Assembly: GCA_039805985.1 (NCBI GenBank)
Contig: JBDLSY010000105.1
Span: 1-25,647, forward strand
DNA from: Pseudomonadota bacterium
Lineage (GTDB): Bacteria; Pseudomonadota; Gammaproteobacteria; Burkholderiales; Burkholderiaceae_C
Length of the DNA: 25,647 nucleotides
Direction: 5' to 3'
A model generated the notes under the pieces. That model had not been told where the DNA came from and made no database searches. It was given only the letters and a program-made list of their open reading frames with translations. Below are positions 17,025 through 25,647 of this stretch, one piece after another. Positions within the stretch are counted from its first letter, which is position 1; every line of letters starts with the position of its first letter. The translations under genes and the position numbers were made by a program.

Positions 17025-17588
17025 ATAGCTACTAGCAATTACCGTGACCCTCGCGATAACCGCGAGCCTCGCGACAAACGTGAACACCGAATTAACGGTG
17101 AAATCCTCGCACCAGAAGTCCGCTTAGTCGGTCAAGAAGGTGAGCAACTGGGCATTGTTGATGTTCGTGAAGCTTTACGTTTAGCCGCTGAATCTGATAT
17201 AGACTTAGTTGAAATTGCACCAACTGCTGTACCACCCGTTGCTAAACTGATGGATTATGGTAAATTTCGTTATGCTGAACAAAAACGTTTACATGAAGCC
17301 AAGCTAAAGCAAAAAGTAGTGGAATTAAAAGAAATTAAGTTTCGGCCACAAACTGATGAAAATGATTACCAAATTAAAATGCGTAACGTTAAAAAGTTTT
17401 TGGAAGAAGGCGATAAAGTCAAAATCACGGTTCGCTTTCGTGGGCGTGAGATGGCTCACCAAGAATTTGGTATGCAATTGGTTCAACGTGTACGCGATGA
17501 AGTCGCTGATATTAGCCAAGTGGAATCATTCCCTAAATTTGAAGGCCGCCAAATGATTATGGTGTTGTCTGCCAAGAAGAAAAAATAA
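17025..17588 (+). CDS. infC: Translation initiation factor IF-3 with non-canonical ATA start (ORF track only shows the C-terminal half from 17250)
   Basis: AAGGAG at 17012-17017, then ATA GCT ACT...; frame open to 17588 and encodes HRINGEI.APEVRLV...DLVEIAP...[12 protein letters not shown]...KEIKFRP...[13 protein letters not shown]-type IF3 motifs. Confidence 0.95.
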
Positions 17589-19301: not shown

Positions 19302-19859
19302 TTAATCAACATTACTAGGTTGCCAACTTTTAGCCTTTAATGTTTGTGATTGTAAAAATTGTGTGGGTGTATAGTAATCTACTTGTGCATCATTATTCCA
19401 AGTACCCGCATAGCTTTCGCCATTAGGCCAATCAAAGATACCTTTGCCATGGCGAGTACCTTGTTTAAACTGTCCCGTATATTGATGCCCCCTTAAATTT
19501 GATGCATCACCCCATACATATACGCCTAAGCCTTCACGCAAATCATGGCTAAACTGTCCTACATAGCGATCACCTGTTTCTAGCCATTGTTGCGTTCCAT
19601 TACCGTGCTTTTCACCCTGTAAAAAATGACCTGTATAAATACTAGTCTTCCCTTTAGCAGTACCCAAACCCTGTGCCAAGCCACTGGCATCACATTCACC
19701 TACATAACGATCTTGTAGTTCAGGGTCTTTGACACTACATTGCGGTACTTTAACGCCCGCCGTACTAGCCATTTGTGCATAAGCTGTAAAACTGCTCAAA
19801 CTTATTAAGGCAGTACATAATAAATTTATGGAAAAGCGGGAAGAAAATAATGTATTCAT
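19302..19859 (-). CDS. Secreted MORN-repeat protein
   Basis: Signal peptide ending AYA; repeats YTGHFLQGEKHGNG, YVGQFSHDLREGLG, YTGQFKQGTRHGKG, YAGTWNND; N-terminal Cys pair. Confidence 0.85.
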   Translation of the reverse strand: MNTLFSSRFSINLLCTALISLSSFTAYAQMASTAGVKVPQCSVKDPELQDRYVGECDASGLAQGLGTAKGKTSIYTGHFLQGEKHGNGTQQWLETGDRYVGQFSHDLREGLGVYVWGDASNLRGHQYTGQFKQGTRHGKGIFDWPNGESYAGTWNNDAQVDYYTPTQFLQSQTLKAKSWQPSNVD

Positions 19860-19861
19860 AA

Positions 19862-19969
19862 TGTTTTATTTATATTATTGATATCGTTTATATTGTTTAT
19901 ATTGTTTATTTTATTGATATTGTTTATTTTATTTATTTTGCTTATTTTATTGATATTGTTTATTTTGTT
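19862..19969. repeat. 9-bp-period array (about 12 units, 18-bp higher-order structure) filling the whole spacer
   Basis: Plus strand units tgttttatt tatattatt gatatcgtt tatattgtt tatattgtt tattttatt gatattgtt tattttatt tattttgct tattttatt gatattgtt tattttgtt. Confidence 0.8.
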
Positions 19970-22902
19970 GGAATCGTAATTGACAAAGCATTAGTCGTTG
20001 CATTAAATAAAATTGGACTACGTTGTTTAGCCATTTGGGTCGTGTGTGCGTTATAAAACAAATTTCCCAGTGCATAGCCCATCGCTCCCCCTACGGCAAC
20101 ATCACTAAACCAATGCTGGCGAGTACCCATGCGTCCCACAGCGGTTAATAGCGGTAAAGTATATAAAATAGGTGCATCATAATGCAACGCATACGGCGTA
20201 ACCAAGGCAGTTGCCATGGCCATGTGCCTTGATGGAAAGCTACTATCACTGCGATTTTTTGTACCAAAGCTAGTATTACTTAAACCAGATAAAGGTCTCG
20301 CCCGATTCGTCAAGTATTTCAAGCTAGTCGCTGCTAGTACTGCAGCGGCTGACGATTCTAAACTGGCCAAAGCAACATGGCTACGGGCATAATTACTGCC
20401 ATCATAAGCCCATAAAGCTGATGCACCCATACCCAAAAATGTAAGACCGCTACTGATATCGTCTACTTGTTTAAAACGGCGCTGCATTGCCGAATTTTTT
20501 AATAAATGAACAACATTGCGGTTCATAGCACGGTCTGATGACGCAGTCAGTGCAGTAAAAACAGCCCCCGTTGCAAGCATATTAGGCCAGTTTACGTGTT
20601 GTATACCTTGTTGAAATGAACGAATTGCATTGTTAATTGGAGGAATAATTCCGTCGTTAATGGCAAGTGCACCTAAATGAACCTGACCATCATAATCAGC
20701 TACACCCGCAAACCGCTCTAAACCACTTTGTACACGGTTATTACGCCAATCTTCTTCTAATAAATTATATAAGTCAGCAGGATTACTAACCATTTGAGCA
20801 ATATCACGCGTCCACGGCGACAAAGCGATACTTGCTTTTTGCCTACTGTAGTTAGGCAACATACCATCAAAAGGTAAACTAATTAATAGCCCTTTATCAC
20901 GATAATTACTTGCACCTACCCCATAGTCTTTAGCATTTGTGACCGACATCCACGCACCTAATTCAGTACCCCCCCAAAAACGCCGTTTAAATTCCGCACG
21001 AACGCCTATATCTTTTGCCAAAAAACGTCCCGCACGTACAGTAAGGTTGGTTTCCATGGGCAAACGGTAATGTAATGCTGCTAAGGCAGTGGTTGTACGA
21101 TAACCGTTTAAACCAAACATAGTCTGTTCATCACGCTGTGCGACTGTATCTATACTTAAATCAACTGCCCAAGGTGATTGAGCAGGTGCATACAAAACTT
21201 GTCCACCAATACCTGCATAAGCACGTTCAAAAATACCTGCATTGACACGGCCATATACATTTTTACCTAAATGCTTAAAATGATTAACAACCGCCAAATC
21301 TAATTTAGCTTGTTTACCTATTTCATAAAATGCACTGCGCGAGCGAACTTTGTTTTGAGTGCTATTTGAAGCACCAATCCCTAATTTACTAATATTTTCG
21401 GTTAAAGTTTTATTAAAAACTACACTAGCATAAGTATTTTTATTCAGTTTAGCCTCTAACTGGGCTTCTGCTTTTACCGCATATTGTAGACCACCAGGGC
21501 CATTTAAATAACTAGATATTTTTGGAGAAAAGCTAGCATGATAACGTTTTTCACCGCCACTATCCCAAGTCAAACCTAGCGGCGTGAGTTGAAAATACGG
21601 GTCTTCTCTCCGTGGTGTTAATCCTAATTGCGGCAAAGTATATCCTCCCAATACAGCGATTTTATCGGCGGCATTAAAGGGTATTGGTTGCTCTACCGAT
21701 GTAATTGCCGCGTCAATACTATGCGGTGTAGGTGTATTTAGCTTAAAAGAAGACAATAAATTTTGTTGAGAAGATTGCCCTTCTAAATAGCTATTTAAAG
21801 CGACTAAGTCAGTAAATAGATATTCCGCTGTGGCTATATTTGTTTCGTCATTGATATAAGTAACTGCAATAGACTTAGTTTCTTGAGGGGTCGTTTTTAA
21901 TGCAATATGCACAGCATCACCGACGGCACTGCTGGCATACAGCTGGGTTGCATGGCTCAGTATTAATTGTAAACGATTAGACGCCGTGTATTTAATAGCA
22001 ATATTTTTGAAACCATAACTGTGTAATAGTCGGCGCATCGCTTCTAAATGAGCAGCGTTACTATTCCATTGTGCTGCAGTCGGCTGCTTTAAAGGAATTC
22101 TAAAACGTGGCTTTTCGTTATTTTTAGCAATAGTATCGCGTACATTATTATCAACAGTATGTTGCACTTGTATTTCTGTTGCGCCCATACGGCGAGCAAG
22201 ACGCATACTCCAAGCACTATTGTGCGGTGTGTATTCCAAACCGTAATTAATAGTACGTTGGCTACGACTTAATTTATCAAGTCCCGTTTCTTGAGCAAAT
22301 TTATCACTTAAATAATGATTAGCATCTTTTTCTAGCATTATTTTTAAGCCTGATACACTGGGTACTGTTGCTTTAATACCACCAAAAACCCCTTTGATTC
22401 GTCCCGTGCCATAGCCTACTGTGGTATCAATGGGAATATTATTCACTATAAACCGTTTACTGGCAGCCACTGCAGTACTTTTAAATAAACTAGTACCTAT
22501 TGGGTCTTGCACGATTAAAGCGGTCGCTGGTATTTGCTTAGTTTCATCAGTAAGTTTAATCCGTCCAAATAAAGTTTTATCTTTATAATCACCGTAGTTT
22601 TTCTTAAAGTCTGTGTAATTACTAGCTAAGCTATTTGGAAATCCATCTACACCCATCACCCGTATAATACCTAAACCACCTTGTAACCAAGGTAAAATAG
22701 TCGCCTGCGTTCTAAAAGTAGGGTACGGCTTTACAAATGAAAAATCATTACGCCAAGTACCGTCTTGGTCTAGTCGCCCGGTAGGCATGGCAATTAACTC
22801 GCTCTCTGCAGCAGTGCTTTTGGTACTAAATAAAAAAATTAAACTAAGTGTACAAATACTACGTGCAAATAAAAGCATAGGTGTGATGTGAAAAATAGTC
22901 AT
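19960..22902 (-). CDS. YjbH/GfcD-family outer-membrane beta-barrel fused to a C-terminal PAP2 phosphatase domain
   Basis: N-part MPTGR...PY...LPWLQ...YKDK...PIGTSLF...DTTVGYGTG and C-part FERAYAGIGGQVLY, RFLAKDIG, DKGLLISLPFD are YjbH-like; tail has K-x6-RP (KYLTNRARP), FPSRH and GRMGTRQHWFSD. ATG 22902 preferred (GCAGGT SD; 22932 lies inside a terminator hairpin). Confidence 0.85.
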   Translation of the reverse strand: MTIFHITPMLLFARSICTLSLIFLFSTKSTAAESELIAMPTGRLDQDGTWRNDFSFVKPYPTFRTQATILPWLQGGLGIIRVMGVDGFPNSLASNYTDFKKNYGDYKDKTLFGRIKLTDETKQIPATALIVQDPIGTSLFKSTAVAASKRFIVNNIPIDTTVGYGTGRIKGVFGGIKATVPSVSGLKIMLEKDANHYLSDKFAQETGLDKLSRSQRTINYGLEYTPHNSAWSMRLARRMGATEIQVQHTVDNNVRDTIAKNNEKPRFRIPLKQPTAAQWNSNAAHLEAMRRLLHSYGFKNIAIKYTASNRLQLILSHATQLYASSAVGDAVHIALKTTPQETKSIAVTYINDETNIATAEYLFTDLVALNSYLEGQSSQQNLLSSFKLNTPTPHSIDAAITSVEQPIPFNAADKIAVLGGYTLPQLGLTPRREDPYFQLTPLGLTWDSGGEKRYHASFSPKISSYLNGPGGLQYAVKAEAQLEAKLNKNTYASVVFNKTLTENISKLGIGASNSTQNKVRSRSAFYEIGKQAKLDLAVVNHFKHLGKNVYGRVNAGIFERAYAGIGGQVLYAPAQSPWAVDLSIDTVAQRDEQTMFGLNGYRTTTALAALHYRLPMETNLTVRAGRFLAKDIGVRAEFKRRFWGGTELGAWMSVTNAKDYGVGASNYRDKGLLISLPFDGMLPNYSRQKASIALSPWTRDIAQMVSNPADLYNLLEEDWRNNRVQSGLERFAGVADYDGQVHLGALAINDGIIPPINNAIRSFQQGIQHVNWPNMLATGAVFTALTASSDRAMNRNVVHLLKNSAMQRRFKQVDDISSGLTFLGMGASALWAYDGSNYARSHVALASLESSAAAVLAATSLKYLTNRARPLSGLSNTSFGTKNRSDSSFPSRHMAMATALVTPYALHYDAPILYTLPLLTAVGRMGTRQHWFSDVAVGGAMGYALGNLFYNAHTTQMAKQRSPILFNATTNALSITIPTK

Positions 22903-22916
22903 GAAATACCTGCAAA

Positions 22917-22949
22917 AAAAGAGCCTTATCATTAGATTAAGGCTCTTTT
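22917..22949 (-). terminator. Intrinsic terminator between repeat-protein gene and YjbH-PAP2 gene
   Basis: AAAAGAGCCTTA-tcattagat-TAAGGCTCTTTT; on the minus strand followed by T7. Confidence 0.8.
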
Positions 22950-23020: not shown

Positions 23021-23530
23021 TTAATGGTTACTAGCAGTATGACTACTAGTAGTCTTAGTGGCAGTTATAATTGCACCCGTAATTACAGCACCGACAATAC
23101 CGTAACCTACCCATTTAGCAGCAGGTGATACTGCTGAAATAGTCGGTAATGAAGCCATTGAATTTACAGCATTATAACCACGTGATACAGTGCTAAAAGT
23201 TTGTTGGGGGATATTTTGAACCGCAACGTTATTACCTATCATGTTTTGACCCATCATATTTTGACCTGTCATGTTTTGACCCATCATATTTTGACCTGTC
23301 ATGTTTTGACCCATCATATTTTGACCTGTCATGTTTTGACCTGTCATGTTTTGACCTGTCATGTTTTGACCTGTCATGTTTTGACCTGTCATGTTTTGAC
23401 CTGTTGTATTTTGACCAAACATATTTTGTGATGTACCTGATCTTGATTTATTAGAATGATTATCAGCAGATACATAAACTGGACTAGCAACGATAGCGGT
23501 GGCTAAAATAGTGGCGACGATTTTTTTCAT
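23021..23530 (-). CDS. Small secreted protein with GQNM(T/M) pentapeptide repeats, YjbE/GfcA-like position and architecture
   Basis: AGGAG SD; signal peptide MKKIVATILATAIVASPVYVSA; 12 GQNxx units; C-terminal hydrophobic segment WVGYGIVGAVITGAIITAT then Thr/Ser tail. Confidence 0.85.
   Translation of the reverse strand: MKKIVATILATAIVASPVYVSADNHSNKSRSGTSQNMFGQNTTGQNMTGQNMTGQNMTGQNMTGQNMTGQNMMGQNMTGQNMMGQNMTGQNMMGQNMIGNNVAVQNIPQQTFSTVSRGYNAVNSMASLPTISAVSPAAKWVGYGIVGAVITGAIITATKTTSSHTASNH
23237..23431 (-). repeat. 15-bp tandem array, 12 GQN units plus one degenerate unit
   Basis: Plus strand TGTCATGTTTTGACC / CATCATATTTTGACC units from 23237 to 23416; SQNMF unit 23417-23431. Confidence 0.95.
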
Positions 23531-23669: not shown

Positions 23670-24845
23670 TTACTGTAACCATTGTTTGCGTGTTTTTAAC
23701 AACACTATAGCTATAGCAAACAATAAACTGAATAAACTACCCGCTAATATTAAAAGTGTACGGTTCGGGCGTGACGGTAACTCTGGCACAATAGCCTCAT
23801 CAATCAGCTGTAGGCTGGCTGTATCACGCGATTCATCTAAACGGGCAAACTCAAATTGTTTAGCCAGTAATTCAAATACAGTTTCAGCATATTTTAAATC
23901 GCGTAAACGCCGCGCATAGTCCATACCTGAATCAGTTAATTTTTTATTATTGCCTAAATGCGTGGTTTGGTTAGCATCACCTGTTTGCGAACGCTCTAGT
24001 TTATTGGATTCATTACGTAATGCTGTCATTTCAATGACTTTACGTTGATAGTCTGGATTTTCGGTGGTTGCATATTGTCGTAAAGAAGCCAGTTCAACTT
24101 CTTTTGCAGAAATAGCTGCACGTATTTTTGCTATGGCTTCAATGGCAACCTTTCCTTGAGTATCTAATTGTAAAAGACCCGTTGTTTGCTGCATCATTTT
24201 AAATGCTTCTTCAGCGTCTGTTAATTGATTTTTAGCTTGTTTTAATTGCGTTTCAAAAAAGAAACGCCGTTGTCCTGCTTCAGTTATCGCCATACGTTGC
24301 ATCATACCTTGCAGTGCATAAAAATATTCATTGGCTATAGCTGCCGCCAATCTAGGGTCTTGGTCTTCTACGTCAATGTTGATAATGCCATCTTTCCCTG
24401 CAACTACCTTTGTTAAGCTGGCAAGTTGCAGTCTAGTATTTTGTGCTGTCTTAATTTTATAAGCTTCTTTTAATGAAAATTTAGCAATCACGTGGTCACT
24501 AATAGAGCGGCTTTTTAATAAACCTACATACAAATCACCTGGCGTTTTAATTCCCAGCATAGTAGCTGCACCGCCAGCCCCCCCTAATGCCCCCAGTATG
24601 GCAGCTTGTCCAGAACCTGAACCACTGGTAGGCGGCATAACGCGTATTTGTGCATTAAAATACTTGGGCTGTAAAAAAGCGACAATGACTGCGGCAACAA
24701 TGCCTATTGTTGAAATAATCAGTAACCAAAGTTTGTGCGTCAGTAATGCGGTAATAATGGCTGATATATTAATCGGCATCTCATCATCATAAGCAGTTGA
24801 ATGTGTATTTAACGCATTATTCAAGTTAGGATTGATAGTTTGCAT
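23670..24845 (-). CDS. Polysaccharide co-polymerase / chain-length determinant (Wzz/Wzc-N-like, no kinase domain)
   Basis: Two TM helices flanking a coiled-coil periplasmic region; LLKSRSI, QFEFARLDE, IDEAIVPELPSRPNR before TM2. Confidence 0.88.
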   Translation of the reverse strand: MQTINPNLNNALNTHSTAYDDEMPINISAIITALLTHKLWLLIISTIGIVAAVIVAFLQPKYFNAQIRVMPPTSGSGSGQAAILGALGGAGGAATMLGIKTPGDLYVGLLKSRSISDHVIAKFSLKEAYKIKTAQNTRLQLASLTKVVAGKDGIINIDVEDQDPRLAAAIANEYFYALQGMMQRMAITEAGQRRFFFETQLKQAKNQLTDAEEAFKMMQQTTGLLQLDTQGKVAIEAIAKIRAAISAKEVELASLRQYATTENPDYQRKVIEMTALRNESNKLERSQTGDANQTTHLGNNKKLTDSGMDYARRLRDLKYAETVFELLAKQFEFARLDESRDTASLQLIDEAIVPELPSRPNRTLLILAGSLFSLLFAIAIVLLKTRKQWLQ

Positions 24846-25647
24846 CAGTAAATTCCCAATACTTTTAAGCTAGCGACACCCAAAGAAAACTGTGAAAATA
24901 TACTAGCCCAGTTTTTATAGTTATTTAGTGTGTCAAAACGACGAATGTTTTCTGGTACGATAATCGCATCACCAGGATGTAATACAACTTCAGAACCCAA
25001 CCAACCTAACCAACCATTAGTTTTACGAGTGATACTGCCATTGGCACGCAATACATAAATATTGTCAGCATCAGCACTGGCTGTTAAATCACCGGCTTGA
25101 GATAAGTATTGCTTTAGAGACTTATTAGCGACATGCAGTACCGTATTTTCATTATGAACCGCTCCCACAATTGACACGGTAGCTTGTTGTGGTGGAATGT
25201 ATAACGTGTCACCATCTTCAACCGCAATATCAGGCACATCACTCAAATAAGCAGTCGGTGGTATATCCATCGCAATACGACCCGAAGCTTTGACGCTTTT
25301 TAATTGGTTTAAAAACTGTTGCGATGCTTGGACAGACTGTGCTTGTTGCGCTGCATTTTCCGAGCTAGTTGCCCGGGTAAGTGACTGTAAATTCAAATCG
25401 CGCTCTAGTTTTTCTAAAGTAGAATCCATCGCTTTTTGCTGATTAGATTGCACCGTTTTTCGCGTTAATACAGCACCGTATACATAGGCTTTGTCAGTTA
25501 ATCCGCCTACACGTTGTACCAACTGTAACAGTGTTTCATTGGGCAATGCTTGATAAACACCGCCCGCATTAAATTCACCTTCCAATTTAACGGTACGCGT
25601 TAGTTTTGATTGTGCAATGCGTAAATCACGGTTACTAAACACACTAA
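24845..25647 (-). CDS. SLBB-domain polysaccharide export protein (Wza/OtnA/KpsD-like), C-terminal part; starts beyond the right edge
   Basis: VKLEGEFNAGGVY...TLLQLVQRVGGLT, VEDGDTLYIP, VSIVGAV, YLSQAGD, IYVLRANG, LHPGDAIIVP; frame open to window end; TGATG overlap with the Wzz-like gene. Confidence 0.88.
   Translation of the reverse strand, partial: SVFSNRDLRIAQSKLTRTVKLEGEFNAGGVYQALPNETLLQLVQRVGGLTDKAYVYGAVLTRKTVQSNQQKAMDSTLEKLERDLNLQSLTRATSSENAAQQAQSVQASQQFLNQLKSVKASGRIAMDIPPTAYLSDVPDIAVEDGDTLYIPPQQATVSIVGAVHNENTVLHVANKSLKQYLSQAGDLTASADADNIYVLRANGSITRKTNGWLGWLGSEVVLHPGDAIIVPENIRRFDTLNNYKNWASIFSQFSLGVASLKVLGIY

Follow-up and report, generated by a model that had tools for sequence, protein, structure and literature searches.

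A conserved gene fusion of a YjbH/GfcD-type barrel protein with a PAP2 domain suggests a phosphate-lipid step of capsule assembly at the outer membrane

In the published picture of Escherichia coli GfcD, two barrels of 12 and 13 strands are separated by a periplasmic middle domain, the second barrel has a lateral gate, and a plug forms the C-terminus (PMC11494523, PMC8346858). Lipid-anchored polysaccharide has been proposed to pass through this second barrel (GfcD-C), which would act as a laterally gated channel (PMC11494523). Enzymes joined to outer-membrane barrels are known from other families: the PagP-LptD multibarrel fusion combines a lipid-modifying enzyme with an exporter barrel (PMC8346858), and YfiM-type lipocone domains fused to outer-membrane protein (OMP) barrels are predicted to be alpha-helical lipid-head-group enzymes in the outer membrane (PMC12419801). 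In Klebsiella the cps genes follow the order galF-cpsACP(orf2, PAP2 family)-wzi-wza-wzb-wzc, the PAP2 gene occurs by wzi in 79 K types (PMC4616057), and cpsACP was scored as capsule-affecting in density-TraDISort (PMC6247091). Here we describe a single gene that joins a YjbH/GfcD-type barrel protein to a PAP2 domain. The gene lies on the minus strand of a stretch of 25,647 nucleotides (the window), which is an entire contig (JBDLSY010000105.1) of a metagenome-assembled genome (MAG; 1.08 Mb, 58% complete) of the order Burkholderiales. Like the PagP-LptD and lipocone fusions, it joins a lipid-modifying type of enzyme to an outer-membrane exporter or barrel; unlike them it uses another enzyme family, and PAP2 with GfcD/YjbH or Wzi appears in neither PMC8346858 nor PMC12419801. 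Consistent with the preliminary description of this DNA, which knew of no characterised example, a literature search found no paper that describes or tests a YjbH/GfcD-PAP2 fusion. The combination is already visible in databases, as an ESM Atlas cluster and in the JGI annotation of such proteins as 'membrane-associated phospholipid phosphatase'.

Analysis of the minus strand revealed a frame without a stop from 19960 to 22932, encoding 990 amino acids (translation table 11). The first in-frame ATG (22932) lies inside a hairpin with a U-run (22914-22949; -18.9 kcal/mol, z -4.0), and P0002, a 93% identical relative, begins at the methionine equivalent to 22902; hence the start at 22902 is preferred to that at 22932. 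From this start, which the preliminary description had also chosen, the protein is 980 amino acids long and its N-terminus reads as a Sec signal peptide, so the single uninterrupted frame with signal peptide proposed there stands. Both regions it had named exceeded the Pfam cut-offs. YjbH (PF06082) matched up to residue 726 with an E-value of 3.3e-104 and 350.5 bits (cut-off 24), profile positions ~10-657 being covered in three stretches, and PAP2 (PF01569) matched residues 858-966 with an E-value of 3.6e-14 and 53.1 bits (cut-off 27.2). The fusion of the two in a single gene is confirmed: the barrel part belongs to the YjbH/GfcD family and the enzyme part to the PAP2 superfamily. The features of the gene are as follows (pLDDT, predicted local distance difference test score).

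19960..22902, minus strand: yjbH/gfcD::PAP2 fusion gene (open frame, Pfam, motif reading).
22804..22902, minus strand: Sec-type signal peptide, MTIFHITPMLLFARSICTLSLIFLFSTKSTA/AE (sequence reading; AlphaFold2 pLDDT <50 for residues 1-42).
22138..22800, minus strand: N-terminal barrel of GfcD-N type, 12 predicted strands (DSSP of AlphaFold2 model; Pfam YjbH; GfcD architecture from PMC11494523).
21733..22086, minus strand: middle globular domain of GfcD-M type, periplasmic in published GfcD models (AlphaFold2 model; PMC11494523, PMC8346858).
20818..21615, minus strand: C-terminal barrel of GfcD-C type, 13 predicted long strands (DSSP; Pfam positions 393-657).
20755..20817, minus strand: conserved SPWTRDxxQMV segment, equivalent of the C-terminal plug of E. 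coli GfcD, where the Pfam YjbH model ends (Pfam, alignment; plug in PMC11494523).
20593..20754, minus strand: linker between plug and PAP2, one helix and an extended stretch (AlphaFold2 model).
20023..20592, minus strand: PAP2 domain, six core helices (Pfam; AlphaFold2 domain model with pLDDT 92; Z-score 16.4 to LpxE and 15.9 to B. subtilis PgpB).
20293..20319, minus strand: PAP2 motif C1, KYLTNRARP (K872, R879, P880; sequence, alignment).
20224..20238, minus strand: PAP2 motif C2, FPSRH (S901, H903; sequence, alignment).
20101..20136, minus strand: PAP2 motif C3, GRMGTRQHWFSD (R934, H940, D944; sequence, alignment).
19963..20022, minus strand: C-terminal beta-hairpin tail of the PAP2 module, last residue K here (AlphaFold2 models, tail comparison).

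In the full-length AlphaFold2 model (pLDDT 77.9; predicted TM-score, pTM, 0.74) DSSP assigned 12 strands to residues 59-261, a mixed alpha/beta domain to 286-411 and 13 long strands to 464-704, as a count of secondary structure only. Strand 13 is followed by the SPWTRD motif, a helix with an extended linker, six long helices (782-969) and a beta hairpin (975-986). For this model Foldseek found only unspecific outer-membrane barrels, with very low TM-scores, and a single PAP2 entry, and was uninformative on the domain arrangement. The strong PF06082 match and the predicted layout up to the plug motif are shared with E. coli GfcD (YmcA) and YjbH; unlike these proteins, which end at the plug, the fusion continues for ~265 residues (linker, PAP2 and beta hairpin). 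It is the sole YjbH gene in the window's genome, where one further PAP2 gene, ordinary and hydrophobic, was found.

The fusion recurs widely. A word-index search returned 26 proteins, of which 23 combine YjbH with PAP2 by domain architecture, with identities from 93% down to 32%. Counted as protein clusters, the fusion occurs in at least 22. Relatives of the PAP2 part were found in 203 genomes when one genome per species was scanned with an 18-row alignment as query; of the best 80 loci, 64 are labelled betaproteobacterial, and cultured carriers among the best loci include Massilia, Herbaspirillum sp. SJZ107 and Pseudogulbenkiania subflava DSM 22618. Among 150 sampled genomes of the window's order, the fusion was present in eight (five of ~950-1030 amino acids and three long forms) and YjbH without PAP2 in about six. 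Three of these six or so genomes, all from one genus (G007, G068 and G119), possess a close YjbH (~800 bits over the YjbH part) that ends just past the plug, and a PAP2-clade gene was not detected at any other place in them either. As relatives exist with and without it, the PAP2 module is an accessory that has been gained or lost. The same three genomes represent natural controls for the contribution of the module.

Comparison of residues 770-990 with 1.84 billion representative sequences (E<=1e-10) identified 160 proteins, and the PAP2 domain is C-terminal in all of the best 150. The partners among these 150 are YjbH with all three parts (35 proteins), GfcC-YjbH (15 proteins of 1170-1460 amino acids) and Wzi (8 proteins), an unrelated capsule-assembly barrel (PF14052), for which the assignment was confirmed by Pfam. 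The rest are fragments of these fusions and stand-alone proteins of 210-300 amino acids with signal peptides; many of the PAP2-only matches are such fragments, and a search for shorter relatives of the PAP2 part found contig-end fragments only. The matching ESM Atlas clusters hold 54 members for Wzi with PAP2 and 59 for YjbH with PAP2. In a quick FastTree tree with many unresolved forks, all PAP2 domains fused to barrels cluster together (support 98), a set of stand-alone secreted proteins branches outside this cluster, and the domains from Wzi fusions occupy at least two separate positions among those from YjbH fusions. As judged from these sequences, the PAP2 module belongs to a distinct clade.

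Wzi-PAP2 fusions are represented by P0052 and P0069 and by the loci L033, L041, L042, L047, L058, L066 and L080. True two-gene forms of PAP2 and barrel exist as well: L072 (6071-9481) has a gene for a secreted 372-amino-acid PAP2 protein directly upstream of a separate wzi gene, and L074 has a gene for a secreted PAP2 protein of 339 amino acids near yjbH and opx. A third candidate, L039, was rejected, as its downstream 290-amino-acid PAP2 open reading frame has no signal peptide and begins inside a domain resembling GfcD-M, the pattern of a broken fusion. In Klebsiella cpsACP and wzi are separate neighbouring genes, an arrangement reminiscent of the Wzi-PAP2 fusions and of the gene pair in L072, and cpsACP may be a relative of the module from a well-studied organism. 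Long forms of 1330-1460 amino acids (P0032, P0034, P0035, P0042 and P0062; e.g. L011:792-4934) consist, in this order, of a GfcC-like region, the N barrel, the C barrel, a second GfcD-M-like domain and PAP2. One polypeptide thus holds up to three otherwise separate gfc-type functions together with the phosphatase. Many of the proteins P0113-P0175 are stand-alone PAP2 proteins of 210-300 amino acids with a signal peptide and a terminal beta hairpin that usually ends in Phe (…GLVINF, …LNYRF). Such proteins present an OMP-like C-terminus on a helical enzyme, and Bacteroidota account for most of the similarly shaped ESM Atlas clusters.

Three PAP2 motifs had been read in this gene by the preliminary description, and comparison with the reference motifs KX6RP, PSGH and SRX5HX3D, which include the catalytic His and Asp, located C1, C2 and C3 at the same positions. 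The Arg for Gly of C2, to which it had drawn attention, turned out to be usual in the clade (R in 15 and N in 6 of the 23 fusion proteins); most of the clade shares this replacement and that of the Ser of C3 by Gly. Alignment of the fusion proteins showed the full catalytic set (K/R/P, S/H and R/H/D) in 21 of 23, the exceptions being P0016, which is without catalytic residues, and one protein that differs by K872A only. Across the clade H940 is kept in 139 of 140 members and D944 in all 140. This conservation shows an active site that is intact and under selection, and the PAP2 module appears to be catalytically competent.

The PAP2 part modelled alone with 140 relatives reached a pLDDT of 92 and a pTM of 0.86, with hairpin blocks at 77-88. 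The nearest solved fold is LpxE of Aquifex aeolicus (6ebu; Z-score 16.4, root-mean-square deviation 2.5 A over 148 residues, 19% identity), followed by PgpB of Bacillus subtilis (5jki; Z-score 15.9) and the soluble class A acid phosphatases (Z-score ~11); sphingomyelin and inositol phosphorylceramide (IPC) synthases are also among the structural matches. A profile search placed LpxE first (E 5e-9) with acid phosphatase and PgpB close behind, the class A acid phosphatases (E 1e-5 to 4e-8) ranking below the membrane enzymes. With the PAP2 part alone, phmmer found nothing significant among the PDB sequences; no NCBIfam equivalog reached its cut-off (SepP NF047884 scored 23.2 bits against 250), and none of the LpxE/LpxF family models matched. 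Our analysis therefore places the module in the PAP2 superfamily, and probably in none of its characterised subfamilies.

The six-helix PAP2 core and the three motifs are common to the fusion, A. aeolicus LpxE and the PgpB proteins of B. subtilis and E. coli. Unlike LpxE and PgpB, the module is the C-terminal part of a Sec-exported barrel protein, has no segment above the transmembrane-grade threshold defined below and is at most 19% identical to them; its C-terminal beta hairpin is also not matched by these solved enzymes, the aligned ranges ending at model residue 218-227. With the soluble class A acid phosphatases (PhoN, PhoC and the Escherichia blattae enzyme) it shares Sec export without transmembrane anchors and the same motifs, and it differs from them in a Z-score of only ~11, few charged helix residues, the fusion to a capsule barrel and the OMP-like C-terminus. 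PAP2 enzymes act via phospho-histidine, and in some members (LpxT, sphingomyelin/IPC synthases) an acceptor other than water receives the phosphoryl or phospho-head group. The module in the fusion probably uses the same phospho-histidine chemistry on a lipid phosphate as LpxE and PgpB.

The fusion lies in a polysaccharide-export operon. In the window, opx (truncated by the contig end) is followed by pcp, the gene of a 169-amino-acid repeat protein, the hairpin, yjbH::PAP2, a MORN gene and a LuxR-type response regulator gene; the features around the fusion are as follows.

24845..25647, minus strand: C-terminal part of an OPX polysaccharide-export protein with SLBB domains, cut by the contig end (791 amino acids with Poly_export in a close relative).
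23670..24845, minus strand: polysaccharide co-polymerase (PCP), Wzz and GNVR, no kinase domain (Pfam).
23021..23530, minus strand: small secreted Q/N-rich pentapeptide-repeat protein with hydrophobic C-terminus, in GfcA/YjbE position, no family match (domain and repeat search).
22914..22949, minus strand: terminator-like hairpin with U-run, separating the small repeat-protein gene from the fusion gene (folding energy).
19302..19859, minus strand: secreted MORN-repeat protein, frequent downstream partner of YjbH-PAP2 genes (Pfam, locus comparison).

As in group 4 capsule and yjbEFGH loci, the fusion stands beside OPX and PCP genes; the position of GfcA/YjbE is taken by a gene for a small secreted repeat protein that matches no family. 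Unlike gfc and yjb operons, the locus has no Etk/Etp, and a MORN protein is the usual neighbour; the GfcB/YjbF lipoprotein (PF11102) was found neither in the window's genome (58% complete) nor in four complete relatives (carriers of 92-100% completeness), while it was recovered in the E. coli control. The five-gene cassette recurs in a 92% identical relative, where OPX is complete at 791 amino acids (Poly_export and SLBB) and housekeeping genes flank the locus. In another genome the fusion and MORN genes directly follow genes for a family 4 glycosyltransferase (GT4), a methyltransferase, a GT2, a DUF218 protein, a GT4 and two FecR-domain proteins. At L088:5299-5964 (plus strand) a DUF218 gene (ElyC/YdcF domain family) was observed among glycosyltransferase genes, directly upstream of a YjbH-PAP2 and MORN pair outside the window. 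The Pfam scan of the window reported no Wza_C on the OPX C-terminus, and the OPX may for this reason be of the class that needs a separate barrel (PMC9603273). GfcC_N and GfcC_C gave weak matches below the cut-off, located in the SLBB region of the OPX gene, and proteins of other lineages carry a GfcC-like region N-terminal to YjbH-PAP2.

The 169-amino-acid protein consists largely of GQNMT repeats, encoded by a tandem repeat at 23234-23416 (15-nucleotide unit, 12.2 copies, 88% matches). Its counterpart in the 92%-related genome is only 109 amino acids long, so the number of repeats varies. The hairpin at 22914-22949 may permit an excess of this small protein over the barrel. The Q/N-rich repeats, and the position of the gene before a barrel protein with an N half described as similar to the amyloid exporter FapF, are in keeping with a published speculation on export of an amyloid-like peptide by GfcD-N. 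The MORN gene is directly downstream in 31 of 65 evaluable non-Wzi loci (YjbH-fused, GfcC-YjbH-fused or PAP2-only) and in none of seven Wzi-PAP2 loci, and the fusion stop and the MORN start often overlap. Members of this MORN family (L006-L085) share ~40% identity, signal peptides and conserved Cys pairs; most have an extra ~70-amino-acid C-terminal domain ending in W-x-P-C, from which the window's copy is free. A complex prediction for the mature MORN protein with C barrel and PAP2 (residues 440-990), both supplied as alignments, scored 0.00 and is uninformative on binding.

Analysis of the hydrophobicity of the PAP2 part bears on its location. Taking a 19-residue Kyte-Doolittle (KD19) average of 1.6 as transmembrane-grade, the maximum in the PAP2 part of the fusion is 1.15, so the six hydrophobic transmembrane helices of the LpxE/PgpB type are absent from it. 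For the clade the median of this maximum is 1.45, with 110 of 140 members lacking any segment beyond 1.6; the other PAP2 protein encoded in the genome has five such segments and peaks at 2.42. Since its hydrophobicity is low, the PAP2 domain is expected to pass Sec and not to lodge in the inner membrane. The six core helices contain 8.9% charged residues, catalytic ones included, and 43% A/G/S/T, and the charge content of the domain is 12.6% DEKR; this composition is intermediate between a soluble and an embedded domain. The tails of the clade end in F/Y/W in 65 of 140 members, against a background of 10%, and show hydrophobic residues at -1, -3, -5 and -7 with polar ones between, as in the last strand of outer-membrane barrel proteins.

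Other domains occupy the place of PAP2 or precede it. In the long forms a GfcD-M-like domain lies between C barrel and PAP2 (E 1e-25 to 1e-30), and in P0024 (927 amino acids) MORN repeats from ~residue 792 take the C-terminal place that PAP2 has in the fusion. It seems that different periplasmic accessory domains can dock onto the end of the YjbH barrel. In the published structure of Wzi the strand number is even and the C-terminus periplasmic. From the M-like domain, the MORN repeats of P0024, the secreted MORN proteins and the C-terminus of Wzi we infer that the PAP2 module would be placed at the periplasmic face of the outer membrane, by the mouth of the C barrel.

Overall, our analysis suggests the following mechanism, in which the double barrel of GfcD/YjbH type, part of a Wzx/Wzy-type export operon, would have gained a PAP2 module after the plug of its C barrel. 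The whole fusion would be exported by Sec and the barrels assembled into the outer membrane. The PAP2 domain, of a membrane-type fold with hydrophobicity lowered so that the inner membrane does not retain it, would lie beside the C-barrel mouth, on or partly within the periplasmic side of the outer membrane. Once the polymer arrives at GfcD-C, the domain could act on the polymer's phosphorylated lipid end or on that of the carrier. Either phosphate or the pyrophosphate-linked lipid would be removed, releasing the glycan, or glycan-phosphate would be transferred to an outer-membrane acceptor during hand-over to the surface; both are chemically plausible because PAP2 enzymes use phospho-histidine and some of them transfer to an acceptor. 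An outer-membrane-sited lipid-phosphate enzyme that acts on the lipid end of the polymer or on the carrier is a reading we hold with moderate confidence, and our confidence in any single substrate is much lower; side of the membrane, substrate and reaction are all what we infer from the features above. The preliminary description had suggested dephosphorylation or phosphotransfer of a lipid carrier or anchor coupled to export, at the outer membrane or in an envelope-spanning protein. The outer-membrane version is kept as the best reading of the fusion, the active site and the export operon; the envelope-spanning version is dropped for reasons given below.

Several observations weigh against this reading. 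The YjbH proteins without PAP2 in G007, G068 and G119 indicate that the module is dispensable for the basic job of the barrel. Its intermediate hydrophobicity and charge would also fit a soluble periplasmic domain. The tail in the window, …NALSITIPTK, ends in K and not in an aromatic residue, with the alternation kept, and the C-terminal hairpin has a pLDDT of only 42-44 in the full-length model. A 13-strand barrel ends outside and only the plug brings the chain back, so a surface-exposed PAP2 is conceivable. Lastly, LpxE, PgpB and the acid phosphatases are all so distant (at most 19% identity) that homology points to no substrate.

A further reading goes beyond this and is offered tentatively, as rather unlikely: the clade could be the first PAP2 enzyme class resident in the outer membrane, helical yet less hydrophobic, delivered by Sec, docked or inserted via a hairpin resembling a beta-signal, and supplying the final chemistry still missing from Wzy-dependent capsule assembly. 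In this step the pyrophosphate-lipid carrier would be cleaved off the polymer, or an outer-membrane anchor would receive glycan-phosphate.

Among the alternatives, lipid A dephosphorylation is the main rival to an enzyme acting on the polymer's lipid end or carrier, and we consider it unlikely. The module would remove the 1- or 4'-phosphate of lipid A at the outer membrane in the manner of LpxE or LpxF, on lipid A-linked polymer in GfcD-C or on neighbouring lipopolysaccharide (LPS), and the effect would be on surface charge and capsule retention. That the best structural and profile neighbour is A. aeolicus LpxE (Z-score 16.4; E 5e-9) fits such local LPS remodelling, as do the modelling of GfcD-C as a lipid A channel with lateral gate (PMC11494523) and the precedent of PagP-LptD for an exporter with a lipid A enzyme (PMC8346858). 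The Wzi fusions fit it less well, Wzi, the second partner, not being a lipid A exporter. In addition, the 19% identity to LpxE is barely above that to PgpB, the LpxE/LpxF family models gave no match, and mature LPS of the outer leaflet would be beyond the reach of a periplasmic domain.

It is also quite unlikely that the module is a tethered soluble phosphatase, a class A-like enzyme held at the export site to act on a non-lipid substrate such as a reducing-end sugar-1-phosphate or a phosphorylated side group. Its helices are without transmembrane-grade hydrophobicity, the class A phosphatases are clear structural relatives (Z-score ~11; E 1e-5 to 4e-8) and PAP2 has given rise to soluble forms (PMC12419801). 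However, the fold is closer to the compact membrane enzymes by 4-5 Z units, the 8.9% of charged residues in the core helices (catalytic ones included) is low for a soluble surface, and an amphipathic OMP-like terminal strand has no role in a soluble enzyme.

A module exposed at the surface, in or on the outer leaflet and acting on LPS or surface-anchored polymer from outside, is improbable. The segment past strand 13 would then not return via the lumen, or would thread out as in inverse autotransporters, and a lumen-filling plug followed by a passenger does resemble autotransporter topology. The odd strand count of 13 leaves the end of the last strand outside (AlphaFold2 model; PMC11494523). 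Against this stand the fusions to Wzi with its periplasmic C-terminus and the GfcD-M-like and MORN domains in the same position, and nothing else in the sequence hints at a threaded-out passenger.

An envelope-spanning protein, with the PAP2 helices in the inner membrane, the barrels in the outer membrane and one polypeptide across the periplasm, is very improbable and was rejected. The PAP2 fold is of membrane type and lipid carriers such as undecaprenyl pyrophosphate reside in the inner membrane, but the maximum KD19 of 1.15 is below the usual threshold of 1.6 and 110 of 140 clade members are likewise without such a segment. The linker from plug to PAP2 is only ~55 residues including a helix, the module is also C-terminal on Wzi and has an OMP-like last strand, and a GfcD-M domain of periplasmic type directly precedes it in the long forms. 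The outer-membrane half of the location first proposed is accordingly the half that is retained.

An artefact or decay (frameshift, assembly chimera or inactive remnant) has a negligible probability and is refuted for practical purposes: the window is a contig of a 58% complete MAG and P0016 has lost its catalytic residues, but the architecture occurs in hundreds of independent assemblies, isolates included, so that neither the stop or frameshift at the linker with separate genes in relatives nor the inactive and eroding PAP2 part, both envisaged in the preliminary description, agrees with an open frame and a catalytic set complete in 21 of 23 fusion proteins.

Elsewhere in the window, the open reading frame listed at 17250-17588 (plus strand) corresponds to the C-terminal domain of translation initiation factor IF-3 with the last residues of its N-terminal domain. 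In many bacteria infC has a non-standard start codon. The gene probably starts at such a codon upstream of 17250 and is shortened in the list of open reading frames.

The conserved fusion described in this study suggests a phosphate-lipid step of capsule assembly at the outer membrane, and bears on the release of Wzy-dependent capsules (groups 1 and 4) from the lipid carrier and on their retention at the surface. GfcD/YjbH is among the most widespread outer-membrane protein families, with a job known from models only. An apparently active lipid-phosphate enzyme joined to GfcD/YjbH and, independently, to Wzi is a hint, of the Rosetta-stone kind, that surface assembly involves phosphate-lipid chemistry at the outer membrane. 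The idea is directly testable, as there are cultured carriers, obvious active-site residues and natural relatives with and without the module. If the existence of an outer-membrane PAP2 class were true, it would explain the fusion to both GfcD and Wzi and the Klebsiella PAP2 gene by wzi, and the clade may offer a handle on that unexplained gene (cpsACP/orf2). Outer-membrane enzymes are very few, and if the PAP2 domain turned out to be embedded in that membrane, a new kind would join them.

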